Positions 719-25,799 are shown, counted from the stretch's first letter. The stretch: DNA of 64,000 nt from an uncultured bacterium (GCA_937949615.1 CALEDQ010000008.1:827556-891555); one strand, 5' to 3'. Made by a program: numbers and translations. Notes: a model not told the origin generated them from the letters alone.

Positions 719-1090
719 TTAAGCGGCCTGAGCGACAGGGGTGGCAGGTGCAGCGGCCGGTTTGGAAGTAGAAGCAGGCTCTGATTTGGTGGCTGGAGCG
801 GCAGTCGCATCGCTTTTGGCGGGCTCAGCAGCCGGGGTGGCGGCTGTTTCAGTTTTGGCCGGGGCGGCTGTGCCGGTGCTGCCATCCTTCTTTTTGGCTT
901 CGATATAGCCTGAATCACGGTAATCAGTCGAATAAAAACCAGAGCCCTTGAAAATGATCGAACTGGCAGAAAGAAGTTTGGTTCCGGCAGCACCGCATTC
1001 GGGGCAGTGCTGTGGATCGGTGCACATCATTGAATGAAAGGCATCAAAAATCTTCTCACATTTTGTGCAGCGATAATTATAGGTTGGCAT
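719..1090 (-). CDS. FmdB-family zinc-ribbon protein with a long Ala/Pro/Thr-rich C-terminal tail
   Basis: The N-terminus MPTYNYRCTKCEKIFDAFHSMMCTDPQHCPECGAAG has the paired CxxC...CPxCG motif typical of FmdB/putative regulatory zinc ribbons. An AGGAGG Shine-Dalgarno sits 7 nt upstream of the ATG. The tail is low-complexity (TAAPAKTETAATPAAEPAKSDATAAPATKSEPAST...). Confidence 0.75.
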   Translation of the reverse strand: MPTYNYRCTKCEKIFDAFHSMMCTDPQHCPECGAAGTKLLSASSIIFKGSGFYSTDYRDSGYIEAKKKDGSTGTAAPAKTETAATPAAEPAKSDATAAPATKSEPASTSKPAAAPATPVAQAA

Positions 1091-1155
1091 TAACCTTTCC
1101 TCCTGTGATGATTAACAGCGGTTAGCACTCTTCAGTTTCGAGTGCTAATAATCTA

Positions 1156-2937
1156 TCATAAGCCCGCAGCTTGTTCAAGAAAATTATCAAATTCACAAAG
1201 CAGCCAGGCATAGTCGTCAACGAGACCATAGCATCTGCAGACCGCTTCATTGAGCCGGGAAAAAACTTCGCCATACTCTGGTGAAGCATGTGAAAGCTTC
1301 TGCAGCTTTCCGGCACAGTCGGCAACCAGAGCAAACAGCCTTTTGTTAAACGGCGGCAGAGGAACCTGCCTGACTTGTGTCACCGTTACATGAAAGCTGT
1401 GAAATCTGCCACTGAACCAGGCATTGACCGGCAAGCTGTTCAACAGACCAAGAAGAAACATTTCCGGGTAATCAGCCGATTCTGAAACAATAAATGAAAG
1501 CGAGTTCTTGGGGTAATAGCTCTCGGTGTCATAAGCCGCGACCAGGCGCGTCTTCAGTTTCTCATTGCGGATATTCTGATACAGAAGCTTGCTGCCGGCC
1601 CAGATTTTTTCGTCGCCGGCGTAGGCAAGATGCGGGCCAAAATCGATAAAAAAACCTTCCCAGTTGATTTTGAAAGGCGCCAGCTCACGCCCTTTGAGAA
1701 CCGGGCGATAATTATCTGCCAGTCGCGAATCACTTACAAACCTTGAGACCCGGTCGGTACGCTGCAACGATTCCTGAATACCGACGCCAATCTTCGCGAT
1801 GCTGCCAAGACAAATCCCTGAAGCCTGCATTTTTTCGAAAGCTGTTTTGAGATCTGAAGACACCAGCGACTGTCGCAGCCCGTTACCAGAGACAAAAGAG
1901 TCTGAGTGGGCCTTATAAGCTTCCGACCAGCCGCCACCTTCTGAATAACCAGAATTGACCATTACCAAATATGACGGTATCGATTCTTTACCTTTTTCAA
2001 CAAACGCCACCACCGGCAAGACACCGGGAGCTGCCGGGAAAAATCTTGCCGGCAGAAGGTTGATGGCGGTTACCCTGTTTTTTTCGAATAACAGCTGCCT
2101 GATCTTCCGGCATTGATGGTTTACCAGCCAGGTATGCGAAGTCAGCATGATCATCTGTCCGTCGTCTGATAAAACGTGCAAGCCGGCTTCAAGAAAGAAG
2201 GTGTAGAGATCTTTCTCGCCTTCGCCTGTCTCATAAAGCTCGTCCAGACGATTTTTATAATCTTCATTCAGATTGACGCGGTACGGCGGGTTGCCAATTA
2301 CCAGGTCAAATCTGGTTTCTGGAGGCTGCATGAGAAAATCACGCTGTTCGAGAACCGGCCAGCCACAGTTGGGAAAAGCGCACAACAGACGGGTCAGACA
2401 GATAAACAATGCCTGCTGATCGATATCGTAACCATGCAGATTTGCAAGAAAGTCGCCTGAATTCACGCCGGCAATTCTTCGGGCATAAACTCGGCCTTTC
2501 GGCCCTTCGACTCCTTCGGACTGACAGGATTGACTCAACACTTCGGCCACCGCCATCAGAAAACTGCCATCGCCGCAGGCAGGGTCGAGTATAAGAGCGT
2601 CTTTGCCCAAAGGGTGCGACAACCCGGCAAGACGCGCCGCAAGCGATTCGGGCGTATAAAACTGACCGGTGCTGCGCTTGCGTTTCTTTTCACGCCGCTC
2701 AAGATCAGGAACTTCGCCTTCACCCGCCTGTTTAAGAACAATTTCACAATCCATTAAGGAAGTGAAGGTTTCGGTCAGATGAACGGGGGCGCCCAATTCC
2801 CGCAGAGTATCTGCGGGATGCCCGGTCGGACGGACGGAAAAACAGTCGGCAATCTTCTCGTTGAACCAGGCGAACAGCGATTTGGGTTCAGATCGATCTG
2901 ATGGATTTTTCATTATAAAATCAACCGTTATAAACAT
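1156..2937 (-). CDS. Gamma-class N6-adenine DNA methyltransferase (Eco57I/TaqI-like), apparently orphan
   Basis: The protein carries motif X (TGQFYTPESLA), motif I (LDPACGDGSFL) and motif IV (IGNPPYRV), the hallmark order of gamma-class N6A methyltransferases. It has a ~250-aa C-terminal region consistent with a target-recognition domain. No restriction endonuclease gene is adjacent. An alternative start at M9 (coordinate 2913) is possible. Confidence 0.85.
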   Translation of the reverse strand: MFITVDFIMKNPSDRSEPKSLFAWFNEKIADCFSVRPTGHPADTLRELGAPVHLTETFTSLMDCEIVLKQAGEGEVPDLERREKKRKRSTGQFYTPESLAARLAGLSHPLGKDALILDPACGDGSFLMAVAEVLSQSCQSEGVEGPKGRVYARRIAGVNSGDFLANLHGYDIDQQALFICLTRLLCAFPNCGWPVLEQRDFLMQPPETRFDLVIGNPPYRVNLNEDYKNRLDELYETGEGEKDLYTFFLEAGLHVLSDDGQMIMLTSHTWLVNHQCRKIRQLLFEKNRVTAINLLPARFFPAAPGVLPVVAFVEKGKESIPSYLVMVNSGYSEGGGWSEAYKAHSDSFVSGNGLRQSLVSSDLKTAFEKMQASGICLGSIAKIGVGIQESLQRTDRVSRFVSDSRLADNYRPVLKGRELAPFKINWEGFFIDFGPHLAYAGDEKIWAGSKLLYQNIRNEKLKTRLVAAYDTESYYPKNSLSFIVSESADYPEMFLLGLLNSLPVNAWFSGRFHSFHVTVTQVRQVPLPPFNKRLFALVADCAGKLQKLSHASPEYGEVFSRLNEAVCRCYGLVDDYAWLLCEFDNFLEQAAGL

Positions 2938-2961
2938 CGGGGTTCAACATGTTGAACCCCG
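2938..2961. repeat. Perfect 24-bp palindrome CGGGGTTCAACATGTTGAACCCCG immediately 5' of the methyltransferase start codon
   Basis: Read directly from the sequence as ggttcaacatgttgaacccc flanked by cg..cg. It lies 37 nt downstream of the wzz-like stop and abuts the ATG at 2937 on the minus strand. It could be an operator, an RNA hairpin or a terminator. Confidence 0.9.
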
Positions 2962-2997
2962 ACAGAAATAAAACCAACAAATATTAACCAGTTTTAA

Positions 2998-4221
2998 TCA
3001 GCTCGCGGCAGCGGTCTTTGCTTCCTGCTCTTTGCGGCGGCGGATGAATTCGATCAGAAAAGCGGCGAAGACACCGAGCACACCAGCACTTAGACCAGCC
3101 AGAATAACCATGATCGAGCGGCGGGGTTTCGATTTGACTTCGGGAGCCCGCGCCCGGTCGACCACTTCGAACTGACTGCCTTCTTCTGCCTCAGCAATTT
3201 TAGCCATTTCATACTGCTCGGTCAGAACGCCGAAAATCTTCGTCTTGACGCTGAGATTGCGCTGCAAACGGGCAAATTCGAGGGCCAGTTCGGGCAGAAC
3301 GCCGATCTCCTTCTCGACCAGAGCGATTTCCTTGTCGAGAGCCGAAATTTTGGCTTCTTCGGCCACCTTCTGTGCTTCGACCTTAACCAGCTCAGGAACA
3401 CTGCCCGAAGATTTGAGCAGACTTTCCTGCATCTGCAGAGACACGCCGGCGGCGATCTTCTGAGATTCAAGACCTGCAAGCTTTTCGATTACTGCTGAAG
3501 CCTGCTTTTCAAGAGTAAACATTTTGTGTTTGTCCTGAAAAACCTTGAAGTCGTTTTCAGCGGCCGCCAGTTCTTTGCTGACGATTTCAAGCTGTCGTTC
3601 TATGAACAGGCGCTTTTCTTTCTGCGGGCCGCGGGTAAAGCCACTCAGATATTCAATATAGGCACTGGCGATTTCAGCCGACACTTCTGGCGACATTGTC
3701 TCAGCAGTAATCGTAATCAGGCCTTCCTTGTCTTTATCGACCGAAACAATCTTTGAGACAGTCTTGACCACATCATCATATTTGATTTTATCCGGGGTCG
3801 GCGGGTTATCACCAACGATCGCCGGGTTGGTAGCGATACCAAACCTGGCAATGATTCGATCGCTCATGGTGCGGCTTTTCAGATAAACCATCAGATATTC
3901 AGCCCCACCGCCGCCAAGTCCAGGTATCATGCCTGCAAACGGGAGACTGCTCAAAGCACTCAGTTTACCACTTGAGTGAACGAAAATAGTTGCACTGGCC
4001 TTGAAATGGTTTGGCAGCGTCAGGCTGTAGACAGCTGTAACGACAGCCACAATCAGAGGCATCAGAACAACCAGTTTCCAGTGCTTGAGCAGAACCCTGA
4101 ACAGCTCGAAAAGGTCAATTTCGTCTTCTTCGAGACCCATAAGAATCTCGCGTTTGAGAAGTTCTTCTTTAACCTCTTTCTTCAGCTGTTCAGGATTGAT
4201 GTCGTTGAATTTTTCTGTCAT
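2998..4221 (-). CDS. Polysaccharide chain-length determinant (Wzz/GumC-like, PCP family without kinase domain)
   Basis: The N-terminal Wzz signature is EIDLFELFRVLLKHWKLVVLMPLIVAVVTAVYSLTLPNHFKASATIFV, with TM1. It is followed by a long periplasmic coiled-coil region and a C-terminal TM2 (IMVILAGLSAGVLGVFAAFLIEF). The start codon sits 3 nt after the stop of the upstream gene, indicating translational coupling. Confidence 0.8.
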   Translation of the reverse strand: MTEKFNDINPEQLKKEVKEELLKREILMGLEEDEIDLFELFRVLLKHWKLVVLMPLIVAVVTAVYSLTLPNHFKASATIFVHSSGKLSALSSLPFAGMIPGLGGGGAEYLMVYLKSRTMSDRIIARFGIATNPAIVGDNPPTPDKIKYDDVVKTVSKIVSVDKDKEGLITITAETMSPEVSAEIASAYIEYLSGFTRGPQKEKRLFIERQLEIVSKELAAAENDFKVFQDKHKMFTLEKQASAVIEKLAGLESQKIAAGVSLQMQESLLKSSGSVPELVKVEAQKVAEEAKISALDKEIALVEKEIGVLPELALEFARLQRNLSVKTKIFGVLTEQYEMAKIAEAEEGSQFEVVDRARAPEVKSKPRRSIMVILAGLSAGVLGVFAAFLIEFIRRRKEQEAKTAAAS

Positions 4222-4224
4222 GGT

Positions 4225-5346
4225 TTATTCTTCGATGATTTCAACGTTGGCGCGCGGCAGAACGAATTTTTCACCAGAAGCGGTCTGAATCTCGACAACG
4301 CGCACTTTCGCTTCAGAAGGAATGATAACCGGTTTTTCGGGAAGTGAAACGACTTTGGCAACTTCGCCAAAATGCGGCTGTCTGATGATACGCACGTTGC
4401 TGCCAATAGTCATGCCGGTATTCGGAGCGTGCTTCTGTTCGTTGATGTCAGCAACTTCGATCGGAATGACAACTTCGGGCCTGATAACGCCGGCACGAAT
4501 CTGTGTGGCGCCGTTAATCGAGGCTTTGCGGCCTTCGGCGTTTTTCAGCAGATCGAAGGTTTTCTTCGCCATATTGATCTGGCCAAAACCTTCGGTGACG
4601 ACGAGGGTGATGCCCTTGTCTTCGGTGCCGGTGATGGCAACGCCAAGGTCGTAGCCGAGGAATTCCTTGAGGTCGTGCGCATCATAACCACCGACGATGA
4701 CGCCCTTGACGCCGACTTCGACGGCCCGGGTCAGCGCGGCAGCGGTTACCAGCGAGCCACCGACCACGATTTTCCCTTTGTGCTCGATCTTGATGCTGTC
4801 TTTGTCGAGAACGTCAGATGGTGATTTTGCCGCCATTACCAGATTGCCGATCACTTCGCCGCCGATACCGAAAATGCCCTGAATGAAAGAGGCAACGGTG
4901 TTGACCTTTACCCCTTCTTCGGCGTAGACATCGTCAACGATACCGTCAACGTAGGCATGCACTTCTACCGGAATCGGCGGCTCGCGCAGAATCGCCTGAC
5001 CGGTTACAGTCGACAGGCTTTCGATGGTGCCTTTGATCGGTGAGCGCACGTAGGTTTTGAAAAAGCCGAAGAAACCCTGGGTTTCGGCGAGAACATCGTC
5101 TTTTTCAATTGCGTCGCCTTCTTTTTTAACAAGAAAGTCGGTGATTTCGCGGGCTTCACAGCCCAGCAGATTGGCGACATTCAGCGGGTAAACGTTGCCG
5201 GGCAGGTCTGTCGATGCGACGACCGTTTCAGCAGTAACTTTATCACCTTTTTTTACGAGAACCTGGCCTTTGAGAGGCAGTTTGCGTTCTTTTTCGACCA
5301 GAGTTTTAGCTACAATCTTGAGACCTGGGGTATATGCACTAGCCAT
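4225..5346 (-). CDS. Hypothetical protein (373 aa) co-transcribed with the ASKHA ATPase
   Basis: Long ORF with an AAGGA Shine-Dalgarno, 18 nt after the stop of the 604-aa gene. The product is Gly/Val-rich and soluble-looking (GIFGIGGEVIGNLVMAAK...GVKGVIVGGYDAHDLKEFLGYDLGVAITGTEDKGITLVVTEGFGQ). I recognise no family with confidence. Confidence 0.6.
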   Translation of the reverse strand: MASAYTPGLKIVAKTLVEKERKLPLKGQVLVKKGDKVTAETVVASTDLPGNVYPLNVANLLGCEAREITDFLVKKEGDAIEKDDVLAETQGFFGFFKTYVRSPIKGTIESLSTVTGQAILREPPIPVEVHAYVDGIVDDVYAEEGVKVNTVASFIQGIFGIGGEVIGNLVMAAKSPSDVLDKDSIKIEHKGKIVVGGSLVTAAALTRAVEVGVKGVIVGGYDAHDLKEFLGYDLGVAITGTEDKGITLVVTEGFGQINMAKKTFDLLKNAEGRKASINGATQIRAGVIRPEVVIPIEVADINEQKHAPNTGMTIGSNVRIIRQPHFGEVAKVVSLPEKPVIIPSEAKVRVVEIQTASGEKFVLPRANVEIIEE

Positions 5347-5364
5347 TGTTCAGTGTCCTTTCGC

Positions 5365-7179
5365 TCAGAGACCGGGATAAAGATCCATGGCTTTATACCA
5401 GGACTTCACCAGCTTAACGCGTTCAGCATTGTCTTTTGGCAGGGTGAACGGGCGACCGCGTGTATCGAAAATAAGACCGACAACGCCGCCGTGCACTTCT
5501 GATTCCATTTCACGGCCATCGCCATTGCCCATGTCAAAGCCCCATTTCGGTTTAACGAACAGCTTCGCGGTTTCACCGACTGCGAGTGGCACGACGTTCA
5601 GTTCGCCACCCTTGAGGGTTTTGCTGATCTTTTCGCCGTTGGCTTTGGTAAGAGTAAAATCGAGCACCGGCTCATCACGTTTCACATTACCGGTCGGGGC
5701 AACGCAGGTGCCGAGATAAATCAGGCAGTCGCGTTCGAAAACGCTGAGAGCGGCTTCTTCGTGAACCTTGGCAAGAACGCCGAGCTGCGGCATCATAAAG
5801 ATCGAGTCGACGGTCAGCTGGGTAATACCTTCGGGCAGGAAAGAGTCGATCAGCATCATCGCGGTCTGCTGTCTTCTCGGGGCATGCGAAAGAACGCCGC
5901 CCGAACCGATCAGCATATTGAGATCCTTGAGATTAACAAGGCTTTCACCGGTCATTGACTGGTCAAAAACGTCGCCGATGGTGCGTTCCTGCTGAATACC
6001 CTTCAGACCGACAGCAAGCGAGCGGTGCTGGTCGAATGAAAGGCGCAGAGCTTCGCGGGCGCAGGCCTGTTCGACCATCAGTTCTTCGATAAGCGAAGGA
6101 ATCGTGGTCGGGCGGATCATCTTGTTTTTGACGCGGTTGCGCAGATCTCTTTCGTCCATTTCGAAAGGAACCCAGCGCATGATGTTTTCGAGTCCGGCTT
6201 CAGCAAATACGTTGCTGATAGAATAGCTCATGCCGTAGTTGGCAGAAACCGATTTGTTATAAATGCCGCTGAAAACGCTGAAAACGTCAGTAGTGGCACC
6301 ACCGATGTCGGCACCGACAACCGTCAGGCCTTTGCGCTTTGAGATCAGCTGCATGATATCGCCTACTGCGCCAGGAGTCGGCATGATGTCTTCATCTGTG
6401 AGTTCCATAAGGTGCGGGTAACCCGGCGCATGGCTCATGACGTGCTCAAGAAACAGATGCTGAATCTTCTGACGGGTCGGCATCAGGTTTTCTTTTTCGA
6501 GAGTCGGTCTGAGGTTATCGGCGATGTCGAGAGCAACACGGTCCTGCAGGCGTTCTTTGATCAGCGACTGCGCATCTTTGTTGCCAGAATAAAGAACCGG
6601 CAGCTCGTAACCGGCGCCAAGGCGGGCCTTCGGGCTGGCAGCCGCAATGATTTCGGCCAGCTCGACGACGTGCGAAGTGGTACCGCCGTCAACGCCGCCC
6701 GAGAGCAGAATCATATCGGGGCGCAGATGTCTGATGCGCTGAATTTTCTGGTAGGGAAGTCGGCCATCATTGGTGGCCAGAACGTCCATGACGATGGCGC
6801 CAGCGCCAAGAGCTGCGCGGGTTGCCGATTCGCCTGACATGGTTTTGACAACGCCGGTGACCATCATCTGCAGACCGCCGCCAGCAGAGCTGGTCGACAC
6901 ATAAAGATCAACGCCCTTACCGTTGGTGACAGGCTTGATGATCGCTTTGCCGTCATCGGTCAGAATCTGCCGGCCGGCAAGTTCCTGAACCTCAGAAACA
7001 GCGTTGAGAACGCCCTGTGTAACGTCTTCAACCGGAGCTTCAACGGTGGTTGGGGCTTCGCCGCGCACGATCAGGCGGAAAACGCCGTCGCGCTTTTCAA
7101 TCAGAATCGCTTTGGTAGTCGTGCTACCGCAGTCCGTAGCCAGGATGCTTTGAATATCACCTTTGCTCACGAGATTCAC
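5365..7179 (-). CDS. Actin-like ATPase of the ASKHA superfamily (GlmL/MutL- or ParM-like phosphate motifs), 604 aa
   Basis: The N-terminus carries a phosphate-1 motif ILATDCGSTTTKAILIE (DxGST..K). Later there is GADIGGATTDVFSVF (DIGGxTTD, the phosphate-2/adenosine motif of the FtsA/MreB/ParM/GlmL type). The start codon is GTG, preceded by AAGGAAG. Confidence 0.7.
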   Translation of the reverse strand: MNLVSKGDIQSILATDCGSTTTKAILIEKRDGVFRLIVRGEAPTTVEAPVEDVTQGVLNAVSEVQELAGRQILTDDGKAIIKPVTNGKGVDLYVSTSSAGGGLQMMVTGVVKTMSGESATRAALGAGAIVMDVLATNDGRLPYQKIQRIRHLRPDMILLSGGVDGGTTSHVVELAEIIAAASPKARLGAGYELPVLYSGNKDAQSLIKERLQDRVALDIADNLRPTLEKENLMPTRQKIQHLFLEHVMSHAPGYPHLMELTDEDIMPTPGAVGDIMQLISKRKGLTVVGADIGGATTDVFSVFSGIYNKSVSANYGMSYSISNVFAEAGLENIMRWVPFEMDERDLRNRVKNKMIRPTTIPSLIEELMVEQACAREALRLSFDQHRSLAVGLKGIQQERTIGDVFDQSMTGESLVNLKDLNMLIGSGGVLSHAPRRQQTAMMLIDSFLPEGITQLTVDSIFMMPQLGVLAKVHEEAALSVFERDCLIYLGTCVAPTGNVKRDEPVLDFTLTKANGEKISKTLKGGELNVVPLAVGETAKLFVKPKWGFDMGNGDGREMESEVHGGVVGLIFDTRGRPFTLPKDNAERVKLVKSWYKAMDLYPGL

Positions 7180-7504
7180 CTTCCTTAACTTCCTTTTTAG
7201 ACTTTTCCAGGTCTTCGATGCGCTCGATCAGGTTCTCGATGCGATTGCGATCGCCGATGAGAGCCTGCAGCTTTTCTGTCTTGACCGGGTCAAAAATCAG
7301 TTCGAGAATCGGCCCGAAAATGACCAGACTGCTGTAGCCAACAAACGACAGCGGTTTGACCATTTCGAGCGCCATAATTACCGGAACACTCATACGACGG
7401 CTGTGAACAGCTTCGGCCAGAACCCTGACGAATTCGTCGAGTTCTTCAGGCGAAAACTTCGACTGCTCGGGGTCTTTCGGAATCGTCCACATGCCCATCG
7501 TCAA
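7157..7504 (-). CDS. Hypothetical small protein (about 113-115 aa)
   Basis: ORF with an AGGAG Shine-Dalgarno. The start is either the TTG at 7504 or the ATG at 7498. It overlaps the start of the ATPase gene by 23 nt, consistent with an operon. The C-terminus is charged and helical (ENLIERIEDLEKSKKEVKEGE). Confidence 0.55.
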   Translation of the reverse strand: MTMGMWTIPKDPEQSKFSPEELDEFVRVLAEAVHSRRMSVPVIMALEMVKPLSFVGYSSLVIFGPILELIFDPVKTEKLQALIGDRNRIENLIERIEDLEKSKKEVKEGESREQR

Positions 7505-7517
7505 AACATCTCCTGAA

Positions 7518-8177
7518 TCAGACTATATTGAGCCAGTCATGCAGCAGAAACTGGAAACGGCCGATCAGCAGAGAGATACGACCCATGACGGTGGCGCCGA
7601 AAGCGGCACCGAAGCTCAGCATCAGATACCAGATACCGACTCTGGCGACGTTGCCGTAAATCGGGCCACGATGTTCGGTGCTGAAAAAGAAGTAAAACAG
7701 ACAGGCAACCGAACCAACCACCAGAACCAGATTTGAGAAGCTCTGGAAGAAGTCGCCGGCAACAACGATCGGTCTGATCGCTTTGGCAATCTGCGGCATA
7801 AGATACTGCTGAACCGAATAAACGATACCCAGACCGGTCGATACGCCCATAACAAAGGCAACCGTAAAACGGCTGACCCATGAGTATGTAGCCGAGAACC
7901 TGAAAAGCATCAACAGACCCATGAAGCCCGGAATCAGCAGCATGTATTCAGGAGTGGCGGTCGCGGCAGCGCCGGTGGCGAACTGAGCCGGCATGATCTT
8001 CGCAAGCAGGTTCGGTTTGAGAACCTGGTGGAAAGAAATCAGTGAGAAGTAATAACCCGCCGAAACCCCGACGAAGAGATGTTCGGCAAAGCGGTAGAAA
8101 GGGTTGTCACGATAGAGAAAACTGAAGCAGCAAAGGGTGATGACGGCCCCCACCCATACTGAAAGCGTTAATGTCAT
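7518..8177 (-). CDS. Polytopic membrane protein, unknown function
   Basis: Strongly hydrophobic 219-aa product with about 6 predicted TM segments. A GGAGG Shine-Dalgarno sits 7 nt upstream. Confidence 0.7.
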   Translation of the reverse strand: MTLTLSVWVGAVITLCCFSFLYRDNPFYRFAEHLFVGVSAGYYFSLISFHQVLKPNLLAKIMPAQFATGAAATATPEYMLLIPGFMGLLMLFRFSATYSWVSRFTVAFVMGVSTGLGIVYSVQQYLMPQIAKAIRPIVVAGDFFQSFSNLVLVVGSVACLFYFFFSTEHRGPIYGNVARVGIWYLMLSFGAAFGATVMGRISLLIGRFQFLLHDWLNIV

Positions 8178-8191
8178 GGTTAGGTTCCTCC

Positions 8192-9091
8192 TCAGGCTTT
8201 CTTCTTGGCTTTTCTCTGTTCGGCGATAAACGCGATGTTACCGGCGATGATGAAAAGCATGATGATCAGGTGAGCAATCGACTGCGGAGCCATGCCCTCG
8301 CGGCCCTTGCCGAAGTATTCGATGAGTTTTTCGTATTCAGCAGCACCGGGCAGACCTCCGGTCATGCCGACCAGTTGGCCAGTCTGCAGATAAGTCACGA
8401 ATCTCGGAATATTGACCGAGGTGCAGCCTGCTGCCATCGGGCGTTTGTGTTCGCCGGCAACGCTGATGAAAGACTCGATACCACCAGTACCGGCGGTAAA
8501 GCTGACGATGATACCGACATCGGTCATGGCGAATTTGCGACCGTCAGGATTCATGAAGATCGGCATTTCTTTGGTAGAATTGCCGTCACGGTCCTGCGGA
8601 TACGGGCCCATGAAATCGCTGCACAAGGCTTTAACGTGAATGATTGCACCCGGCTTGTAACCAAGGTTTACATAGTCAACACCCTTTTCAACGGACGGTT
8701 TGCAGCCGGCAGCCAGTTTCCCGGCGCTTTTCATATTTTCGTAAGTAGACTTATAGATATCGGCAGCAGTAGAAAGAGCTGCTTCAGCCATTTCCCCTCC
8801 AAGAGGCCAGTTCCCGCCGCACAAAGGTTTCAGGTTCTTTCTGAACATGTGCGTCAGAATAGCGATGGCAGAAGGCCCGAGTTCGGGTTCAGATGCCGGA
8901 TCGAAATCGAATGAGAGAAAGCAGCGGGTGCCTTCTGGCAGCTGATCTACAAATTTATAGAGACCTTCGACACTCTTGCCGGGAAAAACGGGAAAGTCCA
9001 TTTTGAAGATCATCGGCAGCATTACTGAGAAGGCTACACACAGGAATACCCAGCGGCGATCGAGGTTTTTCAGTTTGATAAACAGTTCCAT
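8192..9091 (-). CDS. Membrane-anchored protein with N- and C-terminal TM helices and a central extracytoplasmic domain
   Basis: The N-terminal TM is RRWVFLCVAFSVMLPMIF and the C-terminal TM is IAHLIIMLFIIAGNIAFIA followed by a KAKKKA tail. A GGAGA Shine-Dalgarno is present. The gene is tightly packed, 12 nt from the upstream gene. Confidence 0.7.
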   Translation of the reverse strand: MELFIKLKNLDRRWVFLCVAFSVMLPMIFKMDFPVFPGKSVEGLYKFVDQLPEGTRCFLSFDFDPASEPELGPSAIAILTHMFRKNLKPLCGGNWPLGGEMAEAALSTAADIYKSTYENMKSAGKLAAGCKPSVEKGVDYVNLGYKPGAIIHVKALCSDFMGPYPQDRDGNSTKEMPIFMNPDGRKFAMTDVGIIVSFTAGTGGIESFISVAGEHKRPMAAGCTSVNIPRFVTYLQTGQLVGMTGGLPGAAEYEKLIEYFGKGREGMAPQSIAHLIIMLFIIAGNIAFIAEQRKAKKKA

Positions 9092-9103
9092 GATTGTGTC
9101 TCC

Positions 9104-9976
9104 TTAGCTTTCGCCACCGAGGTGTGAACGTTCGACGCCGAAGATGATCTTCATCGAGGCAGAAATTACACCAAGCATGGCGCCAATCAGAATGGCGCTC
9201 TGAGCGGCTGAACTTGGGTAAGCCATGATCCATTCCTTGATCAGGGCGATATCAAGATACTGACCTATGAAAGGAATGTAAGCGAGGTATTTCGAGACCA
9301 GATTGCCGATCGGAACGTTACCAAGCATAACGACAAAGGCGGCGCCCATCAGCAAACCGGCTTCTTTCGATTTTACACGGAAAGCGCGGAACGAAGCCGA
9401 AGCGACGAAGAAAGCAAGCAGCGAGAACATGGTTGCCTGGCCGTTTTTGAAAACACCAACAAACAGAATCTGCTGCAGGCTGTTGACCAGGTTCATGAAG
9501 CTGCCCTTCAGGCGATCCGAGGGAGCTCTTTCAGGAGTAGAGGAGCCTTCAGGGGTCACGTCGACAAGCACGTTACCTTCGGCGTCCTTTTCCACTTTCG
9601 AAACGGTAACCAGCGTTGAAGACTGGCTGTTCTCAGAGAGCAAATAATATTTCTGCCCAACCTGAACTTCTTTTTCAAACATTGGCCAGCTGCCAGACAG
9701 GAAACCAAGGATCGCCATGGTGACAAAACCGATAACGAGAACCAGGCTGTAACCCCAGCCGTCGCCTTTGCGACTGATCTTGTGCAGGTTGATGCGCAGC
9801 AGGCTGAATGCGCCCAGGACCATAGTAAAAGACATGATAATCTGAATCCACTGAGGAAACACTTCTTCGAGTGACTTGATGGTTGGCAGTGCCGGGCCGC
9901 TGAAAAAAGCGATGATCATGATGATGCCCGTCACGAATGTGATGATGAGAGGAACAGTTCTTTTAATAAACAGCAT
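9104..9976 (-). CDS. Polytopic membrane protein, unknown function
   Basis: 290-aa hydrophobic protein with multiple TM segments. It lies 13 nt downstream of the 9990-11372 gene. Confidence 0.7.
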   Translation of the reverse strand: MLFIKRTVPLIITFVTGIIMIIAFFSGPALPTIKSLEEVFPQWIQIIMSFTMVLGAFSLLRINLHKISRKGDGWGYSLVLVIGFVTMAILGFLSGSWPMFEKEVQVGQKYYLLSENSQSSTLVTVSKVEKDAEGNVLVDVTPEGSSTPERAPSDRLKGSFMNLVNSLQQILFVGVFKNGQATMFSLLAFFVASASFRAFRVKSKEAGLLMGAAFVVMLGNVPIGNLVSKYLAYIPFIGQYLDIALIKEWIMAYPSSAAQSAILIGAMLGVISASMKIIFGVERSHLGGES

Positions 9977-9989
9977 GTTCAGGTCTACC

Positions 9990-11372
9990 TCACTTCAGGA
10001 GCCGCATAAAGTTTTCGGCAAGGCTGACGAAAACAGTACCGGATGCATATTCAGTTTTGGAAATGGTTACCAGCAGAGTGCCGATGATCATGAAAACGAT
10101 AATGATCAGCTTGATCATATCCTGGCCTTTGAGAGAACCGACTTCACGGGGGTTCTTCGACAGGTAGGCAGAGGCGGCAAACAGTTCTTCACCGATCAGG
10201 GTGTAGTCGCAGGCGGCGACGAAGAACGGAATCTGCGAAGGTTCGGCAGTACCGGCGATCTGAATCGCGCCAACGGCGTTACCGGTTTCGGCGAGAATCA
10301 GAGATTCGGCGTAGAAAGTGCCGAGATAGAAACATGCGGCCGGTTTTTCGCGCATCATGATACCACCGACGCCGGCGACATAACCGAACTGGTCGTCAGT
10401 GAGGTAGTTGATACGGTCAGGTCTGAAAGCATCGGGGCGACCCTTTTCAAGGTAAGCCTGTTTAACGACTTCCTGGGCAACCGACATAACGAAAGACCTG
10501 GTCATCGGCGCATAAAGAGGTGTGTCGTATTCGGCGGTTTTTTTGGCGACATGACCCATGATGGTTACACCGGCGATGGTCTGAATGTCATCCATGTCCA
10601 TGATGCCGGGGATATAAAGAACGCCGCGACCCATTTCGGTGGCACGGCCAACGGCATCTTCAAGAGCCGAAAGGCCGCTGATTCTTCTGATGAAGAGTTC
10701 TTTACCTCTCTGGGCATGGAAAGTGTAATAAGTCACGAATGCCATCAGAGTAATGATGATCACGAGAACATTGGCGCGGTTCATGTCGAAGTAATACATT
10801 TCTTCGGCAGCAGGCGCCGGAGCGGCAGCCGGTTCGGCAACTGCAACCGCGACCGTAGGCTCGGTAGCGCTGGCAGTTTCTGAAGTTTTGGCGGCTTCAG
10901 TTGCAGGCTCAGTCTGGGCGGCCGGAGCAGCCGGGGTTTCTACTGCAGCGGCAGGAACTGCCACCGGAGCAACCACGGATGATTCAGCGGGAGCTGCTGG
11001 AGCTGCCGGTTCGGCAACTGCCTGGGCAGGCTGAGTTTCCGGAGCTGCCGGGGGAGCCGGCGGTTCAACCGGCTGAGTCTGCGCAGGAGCGGCATCAACG
11101 GCTGGAGCCGCGGGTGCAGTTTCTGCTGCAGCCGGTTCGGCGACCTGGGCAACAGGCTGTGTCTCATCTACAGCCGGGGCAACTGCTGGCTGTTCTTTAA
11201 CAGAATCAGCAGTAATTTCAGTCATGCCGGTATCGTCAACAGCAGAAGACTGAACAGGTGCGGCTGCCGGAATTTCTTCCTGCTGGGCCACAACAACCAA
11301 AGCCGATACCATACACAGGAAAAGAACCAGAAATGGCAGCAGTTTCCTGGGTGGTCGCCAGACAACGCTCAT
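9990..11372 (-). CDS. Secreted/membrane protein with an Ala/Pro/Glu-rich low-complexity region and a conserved C-terminal domain
   Basis: Start reassigned to the ATG at 11372 (MSVVWRPPRKLLPFLVLFLCMVSALVVVAQQ, a signal-peptide-like N-terminus). This ATG has a GGAGG Shine-Dalgarno 9 nt upstream. Then comes a ~170-aa PAAAP/ETAPAAP repeat-like region. A ~270-aa C-terminal domain with at least 2 TM segments follows. Confidence 0.7.
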   Translation of the reverse strand: MSVVWRPPRKLLPFLVLFLCMVSALVVVAQQEEIPAAAPVQSSAVDDTGMTEITADSVKEQPAVAPAVDETQPVAQVAEPAAAETAPAAPAVDAAPAQTQPVEPPAPPAAPETQPAQAVAEPAAPAAPAESSVVAPVAVPAAAVETPAAPAAQTEPATEAAKTSETASATEPTVAVAVAEPAAAPAPAAEEMYYFDMNRANVLVIIITLMAFVTYYTFHAQRGKELFIRRISGLSALEDAVGRATEMGRGVLYIPGIMDMDDIQTIAGVTIMGHVAKKTAEYDTPLYAPMTRSFVMSVAQEVVKQAYLEKGRPDAFRPDRINYLTDDQFGYVAGVGGIMMREKPAACFYLGTFYAESLILAETGNAVGAIQIAGTAEPSQIPFFVAACDYTLIGEELFAASAYLSKNPREVGSLKGQDMIKLIIIVFMIIGTLLVTISKTEYASGTVFVSLAENFMRLLK

Positions 11373-11415
11373 GGAAAGACCTCCAAAACGACAGAATTGC
11401 ATTTACAAGCTAGTG

Positions 11416-11444
11416 ATTATAAACGACCCCTACCGGTAAGTCAA
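11416..11444 (-). promoter_or_regulatory. Near-consensus sigma-70 promoter (TTGACT-N17-TATAAT) driving the 11372->2998 operon
   Basis: On the minus strand, the -35 TTGACT is the reverse complement of 11439-11444. A 17-nt spacer follows, then the -10 TATAAT as the reverse complement of 11416-11421. The predicted transcription start is about 35 nt upstream of the ATG at 11372. Confidence 0.5.
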
Positions 11445-11614
11445 CGAAAGCGTGTACCCCTTTTTTTGTGATAATGAATACCGGCCAAATGAAAATTGTC
11501 GCAACCACCCGATTGTTGAACCTTGTCGAAGCAACGTGATTTTTATTGTTCTTTGCCACAGATCGGCGTTTATCTGTGTTCATCCGTGGCTATTTCATTT
11601 CCCCGTGGCAGTTA

Positions 11615-12634
11615 TCAGTGGTGCCAGCAGGCAACCCGGTGACCTTCACCAATCTGCAGCAGGGGTGGAGCTTCGCAGCATTTATCAGTTTGAAGCGGAC
11701 AGATACTTCTGTAACAGCAGCCTTCGGCGGAAAAAACCGGCGCAGCGTTTTGCATTCTGGACTTGAGCGGATTACCTTCGCGAAGAAACATCGCTGATTC
11801 CAGCAGGCGGCGCGTGTAAGGGTGGCGCGAACCATCAATCAGCTTATCGGCTGGCAGTTCTTCGACCAGGTGGCCATGATACAGCAAAATGATCCGGTCA
11901 GAAATCTGCCTGACAACAGCTACGTCGTGCGAAATAAAAAGCAGCGACAGCTGCCGGTCGGCACGCAGTTTCATCAACAGTTCAAGAATCTGCGCCTGCA
12001 CCGAAACATCGAGAGCAGACACGGCTTCGTCGGCAATTATCAGCTGCGGGCACAAAATCAAAGCCCGGCAGATGCCAATACGCTGCCGCTGACCACCGCT
12101 GAATTCAGATGGGTATCTTTCAAGGGCGCCCGGCTCAAGACCAACCTCATGCAGTGCCTGCTGCAACATTTTTTCCATGCCGCCCTCAGGCTTGATTCCA
12201 TGAATTTTAAGCGGTTCGGCAATAATCTGGCGCACCGTCATTCTCGGGTCAAGCGAACCGAACGGGTCCTGAAAAATCATCTGCATCTGGCGCAAAACCG
12301 CCATACGGTCAGCCCCGCTCGCGCCAATGACCTCGCGACCGGCAAGTTTTGCCTGGCCACTGTCGGCTTCATAAATACCCATCAGAACTCTGGCCAGAGT
12401 CGATTTTCCAGAACCGCTCTCACCGAGAATCCCGAGAGTTTCGCCTCTGGCAACCGAAAATCCCTGAATATCGAGCGCCACGACTCTTGACGCGGCTTCT
12501 CGACTGAAAAGACGCCTGAAGCGCTGGGCGAAGGTGTCTTCGACGACAAAACTTTTGCGCAGCTGACCAACCGAAAGAATCGGGTTGGTTACAGCCTGAC
12601 AATTTTCAGATTGGTGCAGCATCTTTTTCAACAA
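11615..12634 (-). CDS. Oligopeptide/dipeptide ABC transporter ATP-binding protein (OppF/DppF type)
   Basis: Walker A GESGSGKST, signature LSGGQRQR and Walker B IIADEAVSALD are present. The Cys-containing C-terminal extension typical of the Opp/Dpp ATPase subfamily is also present. Confidence 0.85.
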   Translation of the reverse strand: MLKKMLHQSENCQAVTNPILSVGQLRKSFVVEDTFAQRFRRLFSREAASRVVALDIQGFSVARGETLGILGESGSGKSTLARVLMGIYEADSGQAKLAGREVIGASGADRMAVLRQMQMIFQDPFGSLDPRMTVRQIIAEPLKIHGIKPEGGMEKMLQQALHEVGLEPGALERYPSEFSGGQRQRIGICRALILCPQLIIADEAVSALDVSVQAQILELLMKLRADRQLSLLFISHDVAVVRQISDRIILLYHGHLVEELPADKLIDGSRHPYTRRLLESAMFLREGNPLKSRMQNAAPVFSAEGCCYRSICPLQTDKCCEAPPLLQIGEGHRVACWHH

Positions 12635-12693
12635 TCATCAGAATTCTGCAAACATCATCGACAACTGCAGATGATTTTTTGAACTCTTTCGCA

Positions 12694-13734
12694 TCAGGCC
12701 TTTGCGACTGAGGATGAGCCAACTTCATTTTTCAGCGGGTAGAAACAGGCGACTTTTCGGCCATCAGGCAGCGATTCTGAGCCAGGCCGCTCCCTGCGGC
12801 ATTTTTCCTGCGCAAAGCGACAGCGGTCTGAATAAACACAACCAGATGGCTTACGGTCGGGAGCCGGCAGACTCCCCGGTATCGCAACCGGCAGCTTTCT
12901 TTCTGGTATCAGCCGCGGCAAAGCCGCAACCAGATCGGCAGTATAAGGGTGTGCCGGCGCCGCCAGAATCTGGCGCGTTTCGCCGTTCTCGACCAGACAG
13001 CCACAGTAAAAAACCGCAAGATGATCAGAAACAGCTCGAATGACACCCAGATCGTGACTGATAAAAATCATTGTGCGGCCCTCATTTTCTATCTGGGCGC
13101 GCAATTCAGCCAGCAGCTGCACCTGAAGTTCAGCATCGATAGCCGTGGTCGGCTCATCGGCAATAATCAGGTCAGGCTCCATGACCAGTGCCATGGCAAT
13201 CATCGCCCGCTGCCGCATACCACCACTCAACTGATGCGGGTAAGAATGCAGAAACCTGTCCGGATCAGAAAAACCGGCGCGCAGCAATGCCCGCCTGACC
13301 TTCTCATCGACCTGTTCCCGCGCGGCTTTCGCTTCGTGGGCATAAACCGTTTCGCTGATCTGATCATACAGCGTCATGAGCGGATTCATCGCGGTCATCG
13401 GCTCCTGAAATATGAACCCGATGCGCCGCCCCCTGAATTTCTGCCAGGTTGCCTCATCGGCACCGGTCAGCGTCTGCCCGGCAAACTCGATCTGCCCAGA
13501 ACGCGCCGAAACCACCGCCTCAGGAAAAAGGCCGGCAATGTTCATCGCCAGAACCGACTTCCCCGAGCCCGACTCGCCTGCTATCCCAAGACAGCGACCG
13601 GCCGGAACTTCGAGTGAAATGTTTTCGAGCACAGGCAGCAGGCGCCCGTCAGTGGCGCGAAGCCGCAGCGAAAAATCCTGTATTTTCAACACTTGGGGCC
13701 GCCCTGGGTCACAGCTGCGATTCAGCCGGACCAA
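12694..13734 (-). CDS. Oligopeptide/dipeptide ABC transporter ATP-binding protein (OppD/DppD type)
   Basis: Walker A GESGSGKS, signature LSGGMRQR and Walker B LIIADEPTTAID are present. The C-terminal oligopeptide-ABC domain carries the CxxC region. The precise start is uncertain because the ORF overlaps the SBP gene by 26 nt. Confidence 0.85.
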   Translation of the reverse strand: MVRLNRSCDPGRPQVLKIQDFSLRLRATDGRLLPVLENISLEVPAGRCLGIAGESGSGKSVLAMNIAGLFPEAVVSARSGQIEFAGQTLTGADEATWQKFRGRRIGFIFQEPMTAMNPLMTLYDQISETVYAHEAKAAREQVDEKVRRALLRAGFSDPDRFLHSYPHQLSGGMRQRAMIAMALVMEPDLIIADEPTTAIDAELQVQLLAELRAQIENEGRTMIFISHDLGVIRAVSDHLAVFYCGCLVENGETRQILAAPAHPYTADLVAALPRLIPERKLPVAIPGSLPAPDRKPSGCVYSDRCRFAQEKCRRERPGSESLPDGRKVACFYPLKNEVGSSSVAKA

Positions 13735-15406
13735 ATAGAAGTTTCCAGTTCAGAACGTCGTTCCAGATAGCACAGGCCGCAGTCGAAAGCCCGGCATCGG
13801 CGTGATAAAGACCAACATCCATGGGTCTGACCAGAAATGCCATCGGACGAGATTCTTCAAGATAAGCTGACAGGCTTGCAACCGCCTGATTTCTGTCGAC
13901 ACCGTCGAGCATCGAATCAAGCTCCTCAAGAGTTTTATCGACCTGTCCATCCTTGACTCCGGCATAATTCAAATTATCAAGCACCTTCGGCGACGAATGC
14001 AGGAGCGAAACCCAGTTTCCACCAGCAGGAAACTGATAGCTGAGCAACGCTGTGCTGAATTCACCCTGTCTGAGGCGTTTTGATACGAAATCAGACCAGG
14101 AAACAGCTTCAACCGAAGCTTTAATATGGGCACGCCCCAGATCTACAACGATCTGGTCTGCGATCACCCGGCGCGAAAGATTGTCATCGTTGATCAGAAT
14201 CTTTATTTCAAAGGGACTGCCGTTGAAATCACGCCAGTTGTCATTGTTTGAATCTTTAACACCGGCTGCATCGAGCATTTTTTCGCCGCTGGCGAAACGG
14301 TTAGAATATTCTTCCGGGGCTGCCGGCCCTGAAGCCAGAATATTGCTGTAAAGTGCGACACCATCACCCGGGAACTGGTTTAATATGCGATTCCGGTCAA
14401 CCAGCAGGTCAAGGGCGGTACGAACTTTCGCATCAGCAAGAGATGCGTCACGGGTGTTGAAAACCCAGACCATCGCAGCCTGATTCGGGTATTTTACAAA
14501 CTTTACCTGGTCGAGCTTCATGTTTTCGAGCTGCTCTGAAATCATTGAAGGTAGATTGATCCAGTCGTATTTTTTCTGCCTGAAATTAGAAACAAGCTGC
14601 TGAAAATCATAGCTGCTGTGAATCAGAACCGCCGGGCGCGATGCGGTCCGGTCATCGAGAAAATACGGATTGGCTTCAAGCAGAAGATAAGAGCTTTTTT
14701 CGCGGGCCTTGATCATATAAGGGCCGAGGCCAACCGGTTTATCTGCATACATTTCGAGCACCGAGGCCGCGCTGGCATTTTTGACTTCACCGGCAGCCGA
14801 TGCTGTTACAGATTGATCGGCAGATGCCGCCGGTTTATCTGAGTCGAGAATATGCTTAGGCAGCAGCCCGACGCAGAGCAGATCGAGATACTGGCGCGAA
14901 TTACCGGCAAATATCATGTGGCATCTCTGCCCCTGCCCGATCGAGGAAACAGCCAGAACTCCTTTTGCCAGTTCGACATAAGGGCTGTTGTTTTTGGGAT
15001 CAGCCATCATTCTGATGGTAAATTCGAGAGCGCGCGGGTCAAATTCGGTTCCGTCATGCCATTTCAGGCCGCGGCGCCAGACGGCATCGAGAACTACAGT
15101 GCCGTTTTCACCGGGAGTCAAATAATATTCAGAAAAAAGATAAGGCACGAAACTACCGTCGGCAAGCTTGCGCAGCGGTGCAGCATGAATGAAGTTACTG
15201 ACCATCTGCCCATGTTCTGATTCAAGATGTTCAATAGGATTAAGACCGAGCGGATCGCCGTAAATCCCGAGCCTGACAACCCTGCCACTCGAATCATCAA
15301 GCATGGCAGCGATTTCGCCAGGAAGTTCCTGAGTGCGCCGGCAGCCGGAAAAATTCACCAGCGCCGCAATCAAAACGAATATCAATAGAATGCGGTAATT
15401 TTTCAT
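13709..15406 (-). CDS. ABC transporter substrate-binding lipoprotein, family 5 (peptide/nickel/opine type)
   Basis: The N-terminal lipoprotein signal is MKNYRILLIFVLIAALVNFSGC. The 565-aa size and general composition fit SBP family 5. An AAGGAA Shine-Dalgarno is present. The two Opp-type ATPases follow directly. Confidence 0.8.
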   Translation of the reverse strand: MKNYRILLIFVLIAALVNFSGCRRTQELPGEIAAMLDDSSGRVVRLGIYGDPLGLNPIEHLESEHGQMVSNFIHAAPLRKLADGSFVPYLFSEYYLTPGENGTVVLDAVWRRGLKWHDGTEFDPRALEFTIRMMADPKNNSPYVELAKGVLAVSSIGQGQRCHMIFAGNSRQYLDLLCVGLLPKHILDSDKPAASADQSVTASAAGEVKNASAASVLEMYADKPVGLGPYMIKAREKSSYLLLEANPYFLDDRTASRPAVLIHSSYDFQQLVSNFRQKKYDWINLPSMISEQLENMKLDQVKFVKYPNQAAMVWVFNTRDASLADAKVRTALDLLVDRNRILNQFPGDGVALYSNILASGPAAPEEYSNRFASGEKMLDAAGVKDSNNDNWRDFNGSPFEIKILINDDNLSRRVIADQIVVDLGRAHIKASVEAVSWSDFVSKRLRQGEFSTALLSYQFPAGGNWVSLLHSSPKVLDNLNYAGVKDGQVDKTLEELDSMLDGVDRNQAVASLSAYLEESRPMAFLVRPMDVGLYHADAGLSTAACAIWNDVLNWKLLFGPAESQL

Positions 15407-18321: not shown

Positions 18322-18323
18322 GA

Positions 18324-19082
18324 TTAATTAGCCTTGATAACAACCGGATCAGCCGGATATTCGCCGGTCGAGCCGTTGGCCTTGCGGTCAGAATAATCTT
18401 TTATGCGGCTGTTGCCTGGAGAGACTCTGACAGTTGAAGATCCCGGATAAAATGCGGTGTCGCTTGCGAGATTGTTGAATTCAAGAAGAATTTCAGCAGC
18501 AGAAGCGGGAAAACTTGCCGGGCTGGCAAAAATACTGACTGCCACGTCTGAAGAAAACAAAAGATCACCGGCAGAGGGCGAAGCATTATCGTAAACAAGA
18601 GCGGTGTCAGACGCCGGAATAAAGCGTGAGAATTCAAGACGGAGCAGATCTTTCTGGCTTATCATACGGTTATTGTCGATGTCGACCCAGGTAGCGCGCT
18701 GCAGCGTCAACGGCGGTTTGTAATCAACGACGATATCATCGCGCTCGACACTGTTATCCGGGCCATTTGACTTAACCTGGCCCTTCAGCCAGTCGACTTC
18801 GTAATCGCGACCCCATGGGTCACGGGGCAGGTCCTGCAGGTAATGCCCGAGCAGTACGCGCAGGTCGGTTCCCTGGAATGGCCGTTCGGCCATTGTGTCA
18901 TGCTTAACCAGAGCCTCTTTGATGATATCAAGTTCGTGTTTGGCCTTGGCAAGACGCGACTGCCTTACATAATCCTGATAATAAGGCAGGGCAACGCCAA
19001 TCAGTATGGCGATGATGGTAACGACGATCAACAGTTCAATCAAAGAAAATGCTCGTTTATTCATGGTTGAAAATACTACCAT
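18324..19082 (-). CDS. Extended GspG-like pseudopilin (prepilin-type N-terminal cleavage/methylation domain), 252 aa
   Basis: The class-III leader plus hydrophobic helix is MNKRAFSLIELLIVVTIIAILIGVALPYYQDY. GspG core motifs DPWG and GPDNS are present. The shared linker is YKPPLTLQRATWVDIDNN...LRLEFSRF, followed by a variable C-terminal ~90 aa. The gene ends 2 nt from the start of the 934-aa ligase gene. Confidence 0.8.
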   Translation of the reverse strand: MVVFSTMNKRAFSLIELLIVVTIIAILIGVALPYYQDYVRQSRLAKAKHELDIIKEALVKHDTMAERPFQGTDLRVLLGHYLQDLPRDPWGRDYEVDWLKGQVKSNGPDNSVERDDIVVDYKPPLTLQRATWVDIDNNRMISQKDLLRLEFSRFIPASDTALVYDNASPSAGDLLFSSDVAVSIFASPASFPASAAEILLEFNNLASDTAFYPGSSTVRVSPGNSRIKDYSDRKANGSTGEYPADPVVIKAN

Positions 19083-19172
19083 ACCCTTTTTCTCCCAACA
19101 ACTAAAAGCTTAATACGAACACAAGACAGAGCTGCTCAACATTAGATCCACAGAAAATTTTGCGCCGGCTCT

Positions 19173-21140: not shown

Positions 21141-21231
21141 AAAATGCCTCGCAGAAACGGTTGTAAAATCAATAGCATTTAATCAGCTGCGAGGCAAGCT
21201 TTGAATAGCAGCAGTAATTCACAGTGCAGCT

Positions 21232-23271: not shown

Positions 23272-23281
23272 ATGATAAGAC

Positions 23282-23995: not shown

Positions 23996-24003
23996 TGGTT
24001 CCG

Positions 24004-24040
24004 CCTAAAAAAATAAGCCCTCTGGCAAAGCCAGAGGGCA
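24004..24040 (-). terminator. Rho-independent terminator between two pseudopilin genes
   Basis: Stem gccctctggc (24017-24026) pairs with gccagagggc (24030-24039) around an aaa loop. On the minus strand it is followed by TTATTTTTTTT. It begins 8 nt past the TGA stop of the 24047-24784 gene. Confidence 0.65.
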
Positions 24041-24046
24041 ATTCCA

Positions 24047-24784: not shown

Positions 24785-25004
24785 GTACATGCCCTCCTGT
24801 AAATTATGATCTTATCAGATCTGAATCACCCAACAGACTTTTGCAGTGGGTTTTGCCGCCCACCTACGGCGTCTTCACCAGTCATTCAGTTTTGGCAGCT
24901 GCAGCGACACAACACACCTCACTGCCCGGCACCTCCTGGTCTTCGAGATTCCGTTTTTCTGAAATCATTCAGATACTTCGTAAAACCAACCTGTCTAAGT
25001 TGTA

Positions 25005-25021
25005 AGCAAAAGCTGTACCAA
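25005..25021 (-). promoter_or_regulatory. Sigma-54-type promoter candidate (TGGTAC-N5-TTGCT) upstream of the 24047-24784 gene
   Basis: The minus strand reads TTGGTACAGCTTTTGCT. The GG (-24) and GC (-12) elements are separated by exactly 10 nt as in the TGGCAC-N5-TTGCW consensus. It lies 8 nt after the upstream gene stop and ~220 nt upstream of the ATG. Confidence 0.4.
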
Positions 25022-25028
25022 CTTTAAA

Positions 25029-25775: not shown

Positions 25776-25799
25776 TTTAATCCTTCTTTCAAATTCAGT

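Follow-up and report, generated by a model that had tools for sequence, protein, structure and literature searches.

The stretch of DNA analysed here (the window: 64,000 nucleotides from an uncultured bacterium, GCA_937949615.1, CALEDQ010000008.1:827556-891555) carries on its minus strand an operon of eight genes, g1 to g8, whose products are named below G1 to G7 and Wzz. The best homologues of these proteins are 100% identical and come from Candidatus Rifleibacterium metagenome-assembled genomes. Seven of the eight, G1 to G7, form a conserved core made up of a membrane cassette (G1-G2-G3-G4, module M) and an ATPase module (G5-G6-G7, module A), and five of these seven have membrane character. 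Wzz, a polysaccharide co-polymerase, is an add-on of the Riflebacteria lineage only. The two modules together constitute a widespread system, of which the window holds the Riflebacteria version.

Organization of the operon

An earlier note on this DNA had described a near-perfect promoter followed by seven tightly packed genes. The putative sigma-70-like promoter TTGACT-N17-TATAAT was found again, with 11 of 12 positions agreeing with the consensus and the best score of the region 900-12000. The tight packing also holds, whereas the gene count does not, the unit consisting of the seven core genes plus Wzz (Table 1). From g1 to g8 the intergenic distances are 13, 12, 14, 13, -23, 18 and 3 nt, that is, gaps of 3 to 18 nt and a single overlap of 23 nt between g5 and g6, and purine tracts resembling Shine-Dalgarno sequences precede g1 to g7. 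The last distance is the one that had drawn attention to Wzz, whose start indeed lies 3 nt past the stop of G7.

Internal terminators would separate Wzz from the upstream genes. A scan of the operon gave 20 terminator-like matches against 12.8 +/- 3.8 expected, all of them weak stems within coding sequence. The sole strong hairpin, part of a 106-nt stretch folding at -26.5 kcal/mol, follows Wzz and is probably the end of the operon, with a presumed role as terminator; its palindrome, CGGGGTTCAACATGTTGAACCCCG, could alternatively serve as a translational occluder or as a protein-binding site. Judged from this arrangement, Wzz is very probably co-transcribed with G1 to G7 in this genome, and it is perhaps also translationally coupled to G7, as the earlier note had proposed.

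Table 1. Operon genes, associated elements and flanking genes in the window (positions counted from its first nucleotide)
Feature	Position	Strand	Remarks
Putative sigma-70-like promoter	11416..11444	minus	TTGACT-N17-TATAAT
g1/G1	9990-11372	minus	460 aa counted from the ATG behind GGAGG; reading frame opens at 11402
g2/G2	9104-9976	minus	290 aa
g3/G3	8192-9091	minus	299 aa
g4/G4	7518-8177	minus	219 aa
g5/G5	7157-7504	minus	115 aa; TTG start
g6/G6	5365-7179	minus	604 aa; GTG start
g7/G7	4225-5346	minus	373 aa
g8/Wzz	2998-4221	minus	407 aa; last gene of the operon, lineage-specific
GC-rich hairpin	2936-2963	minus	perfect palindrome, 12 bp; directly 3' of Wzz, covers the methyltransferase ATG
DNA methyltransferase gene	1156-2937	minus	Eco57I/TaqI_C-type, N6-adenine
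Opp/Dpp-type ABC genes	11615-15406	minus	family-5 solute-binding protein, two ATPases
Wzy_C genes	15517-30484	minus	region with three large O-antigen ligase-like proteins interleaved with pseudopilins

Distribution and gene order across phyla

The core was followed in 160 loci. A DUF6754 profile scan of one genome per GTDB species gave more than 532 relatives, from which 80 loci were kept (G1-anchored set), and a metagenome scan supplied 80 further loci anchored on G7; the presence of genes was scored by tblastn and by clustering of open reading frames (ORFs). Those G1-anchored loci that carry a label are assigned to Riflebacteria, Zixibacteria, Fermentibacteria, Aegiribacteria, Cloacimonadota, WOR-3, Stahlbacteria, Coatesbacteria, Latescibacteria, Eisenbacteria, Gemmatimonadota, Ignavibacteriales, Phycisphaerae, Acidobacteriota and Muiribacteriota, and six of them (L001-L006) are Riflebacteria-like. 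At 90% identity, G1 and G7 each fall into at least 8000 clusters. Among the best 120 matches of a profile search, none is labelled as an isolate, and those that carry a label are metagenome-assembled Zixibacteria; the other hits and loci listed likewise include no cultured isolate by label. Outside the Riflebacteria, G1 is 57-72%, G6 58-72%, G7 46-59% and G4 37-49% identical to its counterpart in the window. Values of about 60-70% over phylum-level distances, as seen for G1 and G6, are usually a mark of central machinery.

The cassette genes keep a fixed order on one strand, G1, G2, G3 and G4 being detected in 80, 72, 73 and 71 of the 80 G1-anchored loci, respectively, with G2 mostly immediately behind G1. 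A locus contains one, two or three tandem copies of module M (three, for example, in L031, L045, L048, L063, L066 and L080), and because the last copy in most tandem arrays forms a sequence cluster of its own, the duplications look old. Module A is single, with three exceptions among the loci studied. Its first gene, g5, was detected in 23 of the 80 G1-anchored and 26 of the 80 G7-anchored loci, mostly just upstream of G6, and in many lineages it is itself preceded by a gene that is missing from the window and codes for a two-transmembrane protein of about 150-190 aa (c7).

The two modules are frequently neighbours. Of the G1-anchored loci with full flanks, 19 of 36 have G6 or G7 at a distance of no more than 10 kb from G1; for G1 and G7 in the corresponding G7-anchored loci, the count is 11 of 18. 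The commonest layout of the G7-anchored set is c7-G5-G6-G7 followed by one to three copies of G1-G2-G3-G4, all on the same strand. Elsewhere G1-G4 come before G5-G7, as in the window, or G6 and G7 are flanked by two cassettes; in some loci two cassettes are placed upstream of a G6-c52-G7-TolQ arrangement, in divergent orientation to it. The gene-neighbourhood comparison advised in the earlier note shows that the link between the two modules recurs across phyla and in several gene orders.

The protein c52 is an extra membrane-anchored protein of about 250 aa, encoded between G6 and G7 in one lineage (L045, L048, L067, L089-L093, L101, L102, L148 and L164). Here a TolQ/ExbB gene stands behind G7, accompanied by TolR and TolB where the flanks are long enough (L045, L048, L067). 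An apparent G6-G7 fusion in L075, an 809-aa ORF in the region 7000-9990, proved false, since G6 is split there over three frames in a frameshifted assembly, presumably one from long reads. In the WOR-3 locus L024, an isolated 16S rRNA fragment (3638-4006, minus strand, model positions 39-400) near the cassette represents an unusual partial rRNA or else an artefact of the assembly.

The commonest families among 137 immediate neighbours of the system outside the Riflebacteria are GcvP (6), TPR families, MotA/ExbB (4) and LpxB (3); neither Wzz/GNVR nor a mutase is among their 25 commonest Pfam families.

Proteins of the membrane cassette

G1 comprises a signal/anchor helix, an acidic, roughly 170-aa linker enriched in Ala, Pro, Glu and Thr, a transmembrane helix, a DUF6754 domain and a C-terminal transmembrane helix, in line with the signal peptide and Ala/Pro-rich spacer that the earlier note had read in the first gene. 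Residues 202-450 match DUF6754 (PF20539; E = 6e-121, 402.8 bits), a Pfam family without assigned function. Most other phyla have an FN3 domain in place of the linker. From the distribution of positive-inside residues, the N-terminal domain, FN3 or the disordered linker found here, would be periplasmic, and the part between the transmembrane helix that follows it and the last helix, a part that bears the most conserved motifs (GRATEMG, FYAESLILAETG, AIQIAGTA and ACDYTLIGEELFAASAYL), would be cytoplasmic. The second half of DUF6754 is moderately hydrophobic and could alternatively lie in part within the membrane.

G2 and G4 are both polytopic membrane proteins; conserved in G2 is the motif MFSLLAFFVASASFRAFR, and in G4 the motifs FSFLYRDNPFY..AEH and FFFS.EH.G. 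G3 is bitopic: its N- and C-terminal transmembrane helices enclose a domain of about 230 aa, for which positive-inside residues predict a periplasmic location between the two anchors. No Pfam or NCBIfam match above threshold was obtained for g2, g3, g4, g5 or g7. Sequence and profile searches of the PDB with g1-g4, g6 and g7 gave no relative except for the FN3 domain of G1 from outside the Riflebacteria, and comparisons by hhalign among G1-G4, G5, c7 and G7 detected no mutual homology.

Proteins of the ATPase module

The small protein G5 has a single hydrophobic helix and, at its C terminus, a charged one. G6 matches the GlmL/MutL family PF13941 over the whole model (residues 12-485 against profile positions 1-450; E = 3.7e-119, 398.9 bits for a gathering threshold of 27). 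The NCBIfam models GlmL (NF040745) and Or-4 (NF040744) match with E = 4e-62 and 8e-60, and the scores stay below all equivalog cut-offs: 210 bits for 475 required, 203 for 600 and, for TIGR01319, 148 for 204. The protein extends beyond the model by about 120 aa at its C terminus. The earlier note had recognised an ASKHA actin-fold ATPase, and both phosphate motifs are indeed intact, phosphate 1 as D16-C-G-S-T-T-T-K23 (within ATDCGSTTTK) and phosphate 2 as D291-I-G-G-A-T-T-D298 (DIGGATTD); their positions are invariant across 19 orthologues, apart from the nearly invariant I292. Three cysteines are likewise invariant in these orthologues, C17 in the phosphate-1 motif and the pair C485-x6-C492, and may form a metal or Fe-S site. 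A faint match to a fumarate reductase Fe-S subunit profile (profile positions 471-503) also falls near C485 and C492.

G7 has three domains: a barrel-sandwich hybrid, a swivelling beta/beta/alpha domain and a KOW/SH3 barrel. Foldseek returned no full-length analogue for it (query-normalised TM-score of at most 0.19), and the likeness of the swivelling domain to that of DdrA is one at domain level only. The score of G7 with Pfam Biotin_lipoyl is 21.6 bits, under the cut-off of 22.1. A role as biotinyl or lipoyl carrier was excluded, there being no invariant Lys (K97 is invariant only in close relatives and varies in the broad alignment), as was a phosphohistidine relay of the PEP-utilising type, there being no invariant His.

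In the records of the Joint Genome Institute, orthologues of G7 (P0266, P0274, P0275 and others) are labelled "transcription antitermination factor NusG", likely a systematic misannotation caused by the C-terminal KOW barrel. Other database names given to proteins of the system are "hypothetical protein", "DUF6754 domain-containing protein", "Translation initiation factor 2", "NusG" and "MutL". A literature search on the family identifiers and names (DUF6754, PF13941, PF20539, GlmL-like) found nothing relevant.

Proposed function of the system

Reactivases of the DdrA type, in which an ATP/ADP switch pries subunits apart, are built from an ASKHA ATPase and a swivelling domain, and on this ground we propose G6 and G7 as an ATP-driven switch. 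Our preferred reading, to which we assign a probability of roughly 0.3 to 0.4, is that of a shared reactivase-like switch driving inner-membrane complexes. G6 and G7 together would form a split DdrA-like pair undergoing an ATP/ADP-driven conformational change, tethered at the membrane by G5 (and c7 where present). The switch would act on the predicted, conserved cytoplasmic alpha/beta part of G1, and the G1-G4 complex would pass the work on to the periplasm, where the FN3 domain or linker of G1 and the domain of G3 are expected to sit. This work might be the transport or assembly of an envelope component. A single ATPase module would act as the common energiser of as many as three paralogous cassettes, and in Riflebacteria a polysaccharide pathway may receive the output by way of the perhaps co-translated Wzz.

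Several neighbours are weak hints of a role in the envelope. Genes for TolQ/ExbB, TolR and TolB/TonB adjoin the system in 21 of the 160 loci (10 G1-anchored, 11 G7-anchored); UppP, a GT4 glycosyltransferase and a phosphoglycosyl transferase are encoded upstream of G1 in one lineage; and LpxB (3/137) and the Wzz of Riflebacteria point the same way. More broadly, G1 to G7 could represent an unrecognised class of envelope-spanning machine in which a GlmL-family ASKHA ATPase and its swivelling partner power one to three four-subunit inner-membrane complexes. On this tentative and rather doubtful extension, the machine would be core housekeeping equipment in many phyla related to the Fibrobacteres-Chlorobi-Bacteroidetes group and in other candidate phyla, and would work with neither a P-loop ATPase nor an ion-driven motor.

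A number of observations weigh against the shared switch. The AlphaFold2 model of DUF6754 is poor (predicted local distance difference test, pLDDT, of 54.7), so that both the cytoplasmic alpha/beta domain and its contact with G7 are only predicted, and G2, G3, G4 and the DUF6754 core have neither structural nor sequence homologues in the searches made. The modules lie more than 10 kb apart in 17 of the 36 G1-anchored and 7 of the 18 G7-anchored loci with full flanks. In three loci (L117, L120, L162) a full-length G7 occurs without G6 or cassettes, adjoining AccA, Era and a predicted membrane protein of about 300 aa that was not run against Pfam. The envelope-related genes near the system are low in number and phylogenetically clustered, and they stand among plain housekeeping genes such as GcvP, PPDK, AccA and Era. 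Finally, we know of no ASKHA-driven transporter.

The strongest competitor, which we nevertheless consider unlikely, keeps the membrane proteins as importers of related substrates and takes G6/G7 for an ATP-dependent enzyme (kinase, carboxylase or hydrolase) by which the imported compounds are trapped or activated. The ASKHA superfamily includes many kinases and ATP-dependent enzymes of the hydantoinase/oxoprolinase type, and G6 shows faint Hydantoinase_A matches; several paralogous cassettes sharing one enzyme module would suit a range of substrates, and the neighbours are mostly metabolic housekeeping genes. However, G7 lacks the invariant His or Lys that would carry a phosphoryl, biotinyl or lipoyl group, module A possesses membrane proteins of its own (G5, c7 and, in some lineages, c52), and G1-G4 resemble no known transporter family.

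Wzz and the polysaccharide reading

The product of g8 is a polysaccharide co-polymerase (PCP) with a Wzz domain (PF02706; 52.7 bits, 5.5e-14) and a GNVR domain (PF13807; 39.2 bits, 6.7e-10), both above the Pfam cut-offs, and no kinase domain; its scores are far under the cut-offs of all NCBIfam PCP subfamily models. The earlier note had made the pairing of this protein with the ATPase its central claim and had suggested an uncharacterised envelope or polysaccharide-length control system. The envelope part of this suggestion stands, whereas length control is unsupported and the coupling of ATPase and Wzz is not borne out as a general system. A Wzz homologue stands behind G7 in 6 of the 80 G1-anchored loci, L001-L006 exclusively, and in none of the 80 G7-anchored loci. 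Moreover, in the six Riflebacteria-like loci the Opp-type ABC (ATP-binding cassette) genes upstream and the methyltransferase gene downstream are as syntenic as Wzz, so that local collinearity explains its adjacency and the functional meaning of the latter is small.

That the actin-fold module works with Wzz in polysaccharide chain-length control or export is accordingly a reading we hold to be quite improbable. Its start 3 nt past G7 inside the same promoter-to-hairpin unit, its retention behind G7 in six genomes at Wzz identities down to 41%, and the UppP, GT4 and phosphoglycosyl transferase genes of another lineage argue for it. Apart from the 74 G1-anchored loci devoid of Wzz, the whole G7-anchored set, the neighbour families and the equally syntenic flanks, it is contradicted by L006, where the Wzz match begins about 145 nt past the end of the G7 match, and by the operon itself, in which Pfam and NCBIfam revealed no Wzx, Wzy, Wza or KpsMT/polysaccharide-export-type ABC transporter. 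A functional tie of Wzz to G1-G7 specific to the Riflebacteria is possible.

Other alternatives

The odds are slim that G6 is an actin-like cytoskeletal protein whose polymers position membrane complexes. Its ASKHA fold with intact nucleotide motifs, a weak MreB-like_C match (E = 0.0064) and bactofilin in 2 of the 137 immediate neighbours would agree with such a filament, but GlmL/MutL is by far the best family for G6, the MreB-like match is sub-threshold, and we know of no polymerisation in the GlmL/MutL family.

Slimmer still are the odds that modules M and A have no functional relation to each other and simply tend to be syntenic. The loci in which they are more than 10 kb apart and the solitary G7 genes fit such independence. 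It is opposed by the adjacency of the modules in about half of the loci, in many phyla and in several orders and orientations, which is far above the chance expectation (20 kb in about 3 Mb, or about 0.7%).

Least probable of all, and readily set aside, is that G6 (with G7) is a canonical GlmL that reactivates a B12-dependent mutase beside unrelated membrane genes: the full-length PF13941 match, the GlmL and Or-4 E-values and the DdrA-like swivelling domain speak for it, but the scores miss the equivalog cut-offs by a wide margin, neither a mutase nor a B12-binding gene was seen among the annotated genes of the window or the annotated conserved neighbours in the 160 loci, Rfam scans at gathering thresholds found no riboswitch in the window or in seven related loci, and the linkage of G6/G7 to G1-G4 recurs in several gene orders. 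Assignment of the ATPase pair to a mutase reactivase was the outcome that the earlier note had named as damaging to its proposal; family membership turned out as it had feared, whereas no mutase is nearby and the partners are membrane cassette genes.

Flanking genes in the window

Just beyond the operon hairpin lies the gene of an N6-adenine DNA methyltransferase, with no nuclease seen adjoining. Its position is kept in five of the six Riflebacteria-like loci (43-58% identity), which suggests a lineage-wide orphan rather than a mobile restriction-modification system. A defence island was rejected: PADLOC assigned no family to g1-g8, and the methyltransferase alone matches, with type II methyltransferase models. 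The Opp/Dpp-type genes lie upstream of the promoter and are syntenic with the operon in several Riflebacteria-like loci. Farther upstream, 11-19 kb from the operon, the three Wzy_C genes, one of them coding for TPR repeats, are interleaved with several pseudopilin genes of the N-methyl/type II secretion G type and are followed by a secretin with FecR_C/STN domains; this region might represent a cluster for a pilus or for type II secretion in which pilins are glycosylated.

Comparison with known systems

The seven core proteins appear to be co-inherited, without known function, in carriers that belong mostly to uncultured bacterial phyla. A system of this composition matches no known one; we regard it as new as a system, and its function is proposed here by deduction. 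One practical consequence concerns annotation: G6 is not evidence for glutamate mutase, G7 is not NusG, and the label "MutL" is misleading. If the ATPase pair does drive the cassettes, envelope work would be coupled to ATP in a novel manner, and the role of the reactivase-type ASKHA fold would extend past B12 enzymes.

Each part of the locus can be set beside a known family. Like other polysaccharide co-polymerases, g8 combines an N-terminal Wzz and a C-terminal GNVR domain, with two hydrophobic helices around a long helical region; it is set apart by its low subfamily scores, by the missing kinase domain and by an operon devoid of Wzx, Wzy and Wza, and outside the Riflebacteria it does not belong to the conserved system. 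With GlmL/MutL (PF13941; NF040745, TIGR01319), G6 shares the whole 450-position model and the ASKHA phosphate motifs, but it differs from GlmL in remaining under all NCBIfam cut-offs, in its C-terminal extension and in its three invariant cysteines. In the loci examined it never adjoins mutase genes, its partners being G5, G7 and the membrane cassettes. As regards DdrA-DdrB (PduG-PduH, PDB 2d0o), the ASKHA and swivelling parts are here separate proteins, G6 and G7, the latter adding a barrel-sandwich hybrid and a KOW barrel. DdrA has no sequence similarity to G6, and the present system has neither a DdrB-like subunit nor a dehydratase. Finally, one ATPase module beside one to three paralogous membrane cassettes recalls, by analogy only, the group II energy-coupling factor (ECF) transporters and TonB-ExbBD. 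The system described here has no P-loop ATPase and shares no homology with the components of ECF, ABC or Ton systems, and it is known from its genes, transport itself being a prediction.

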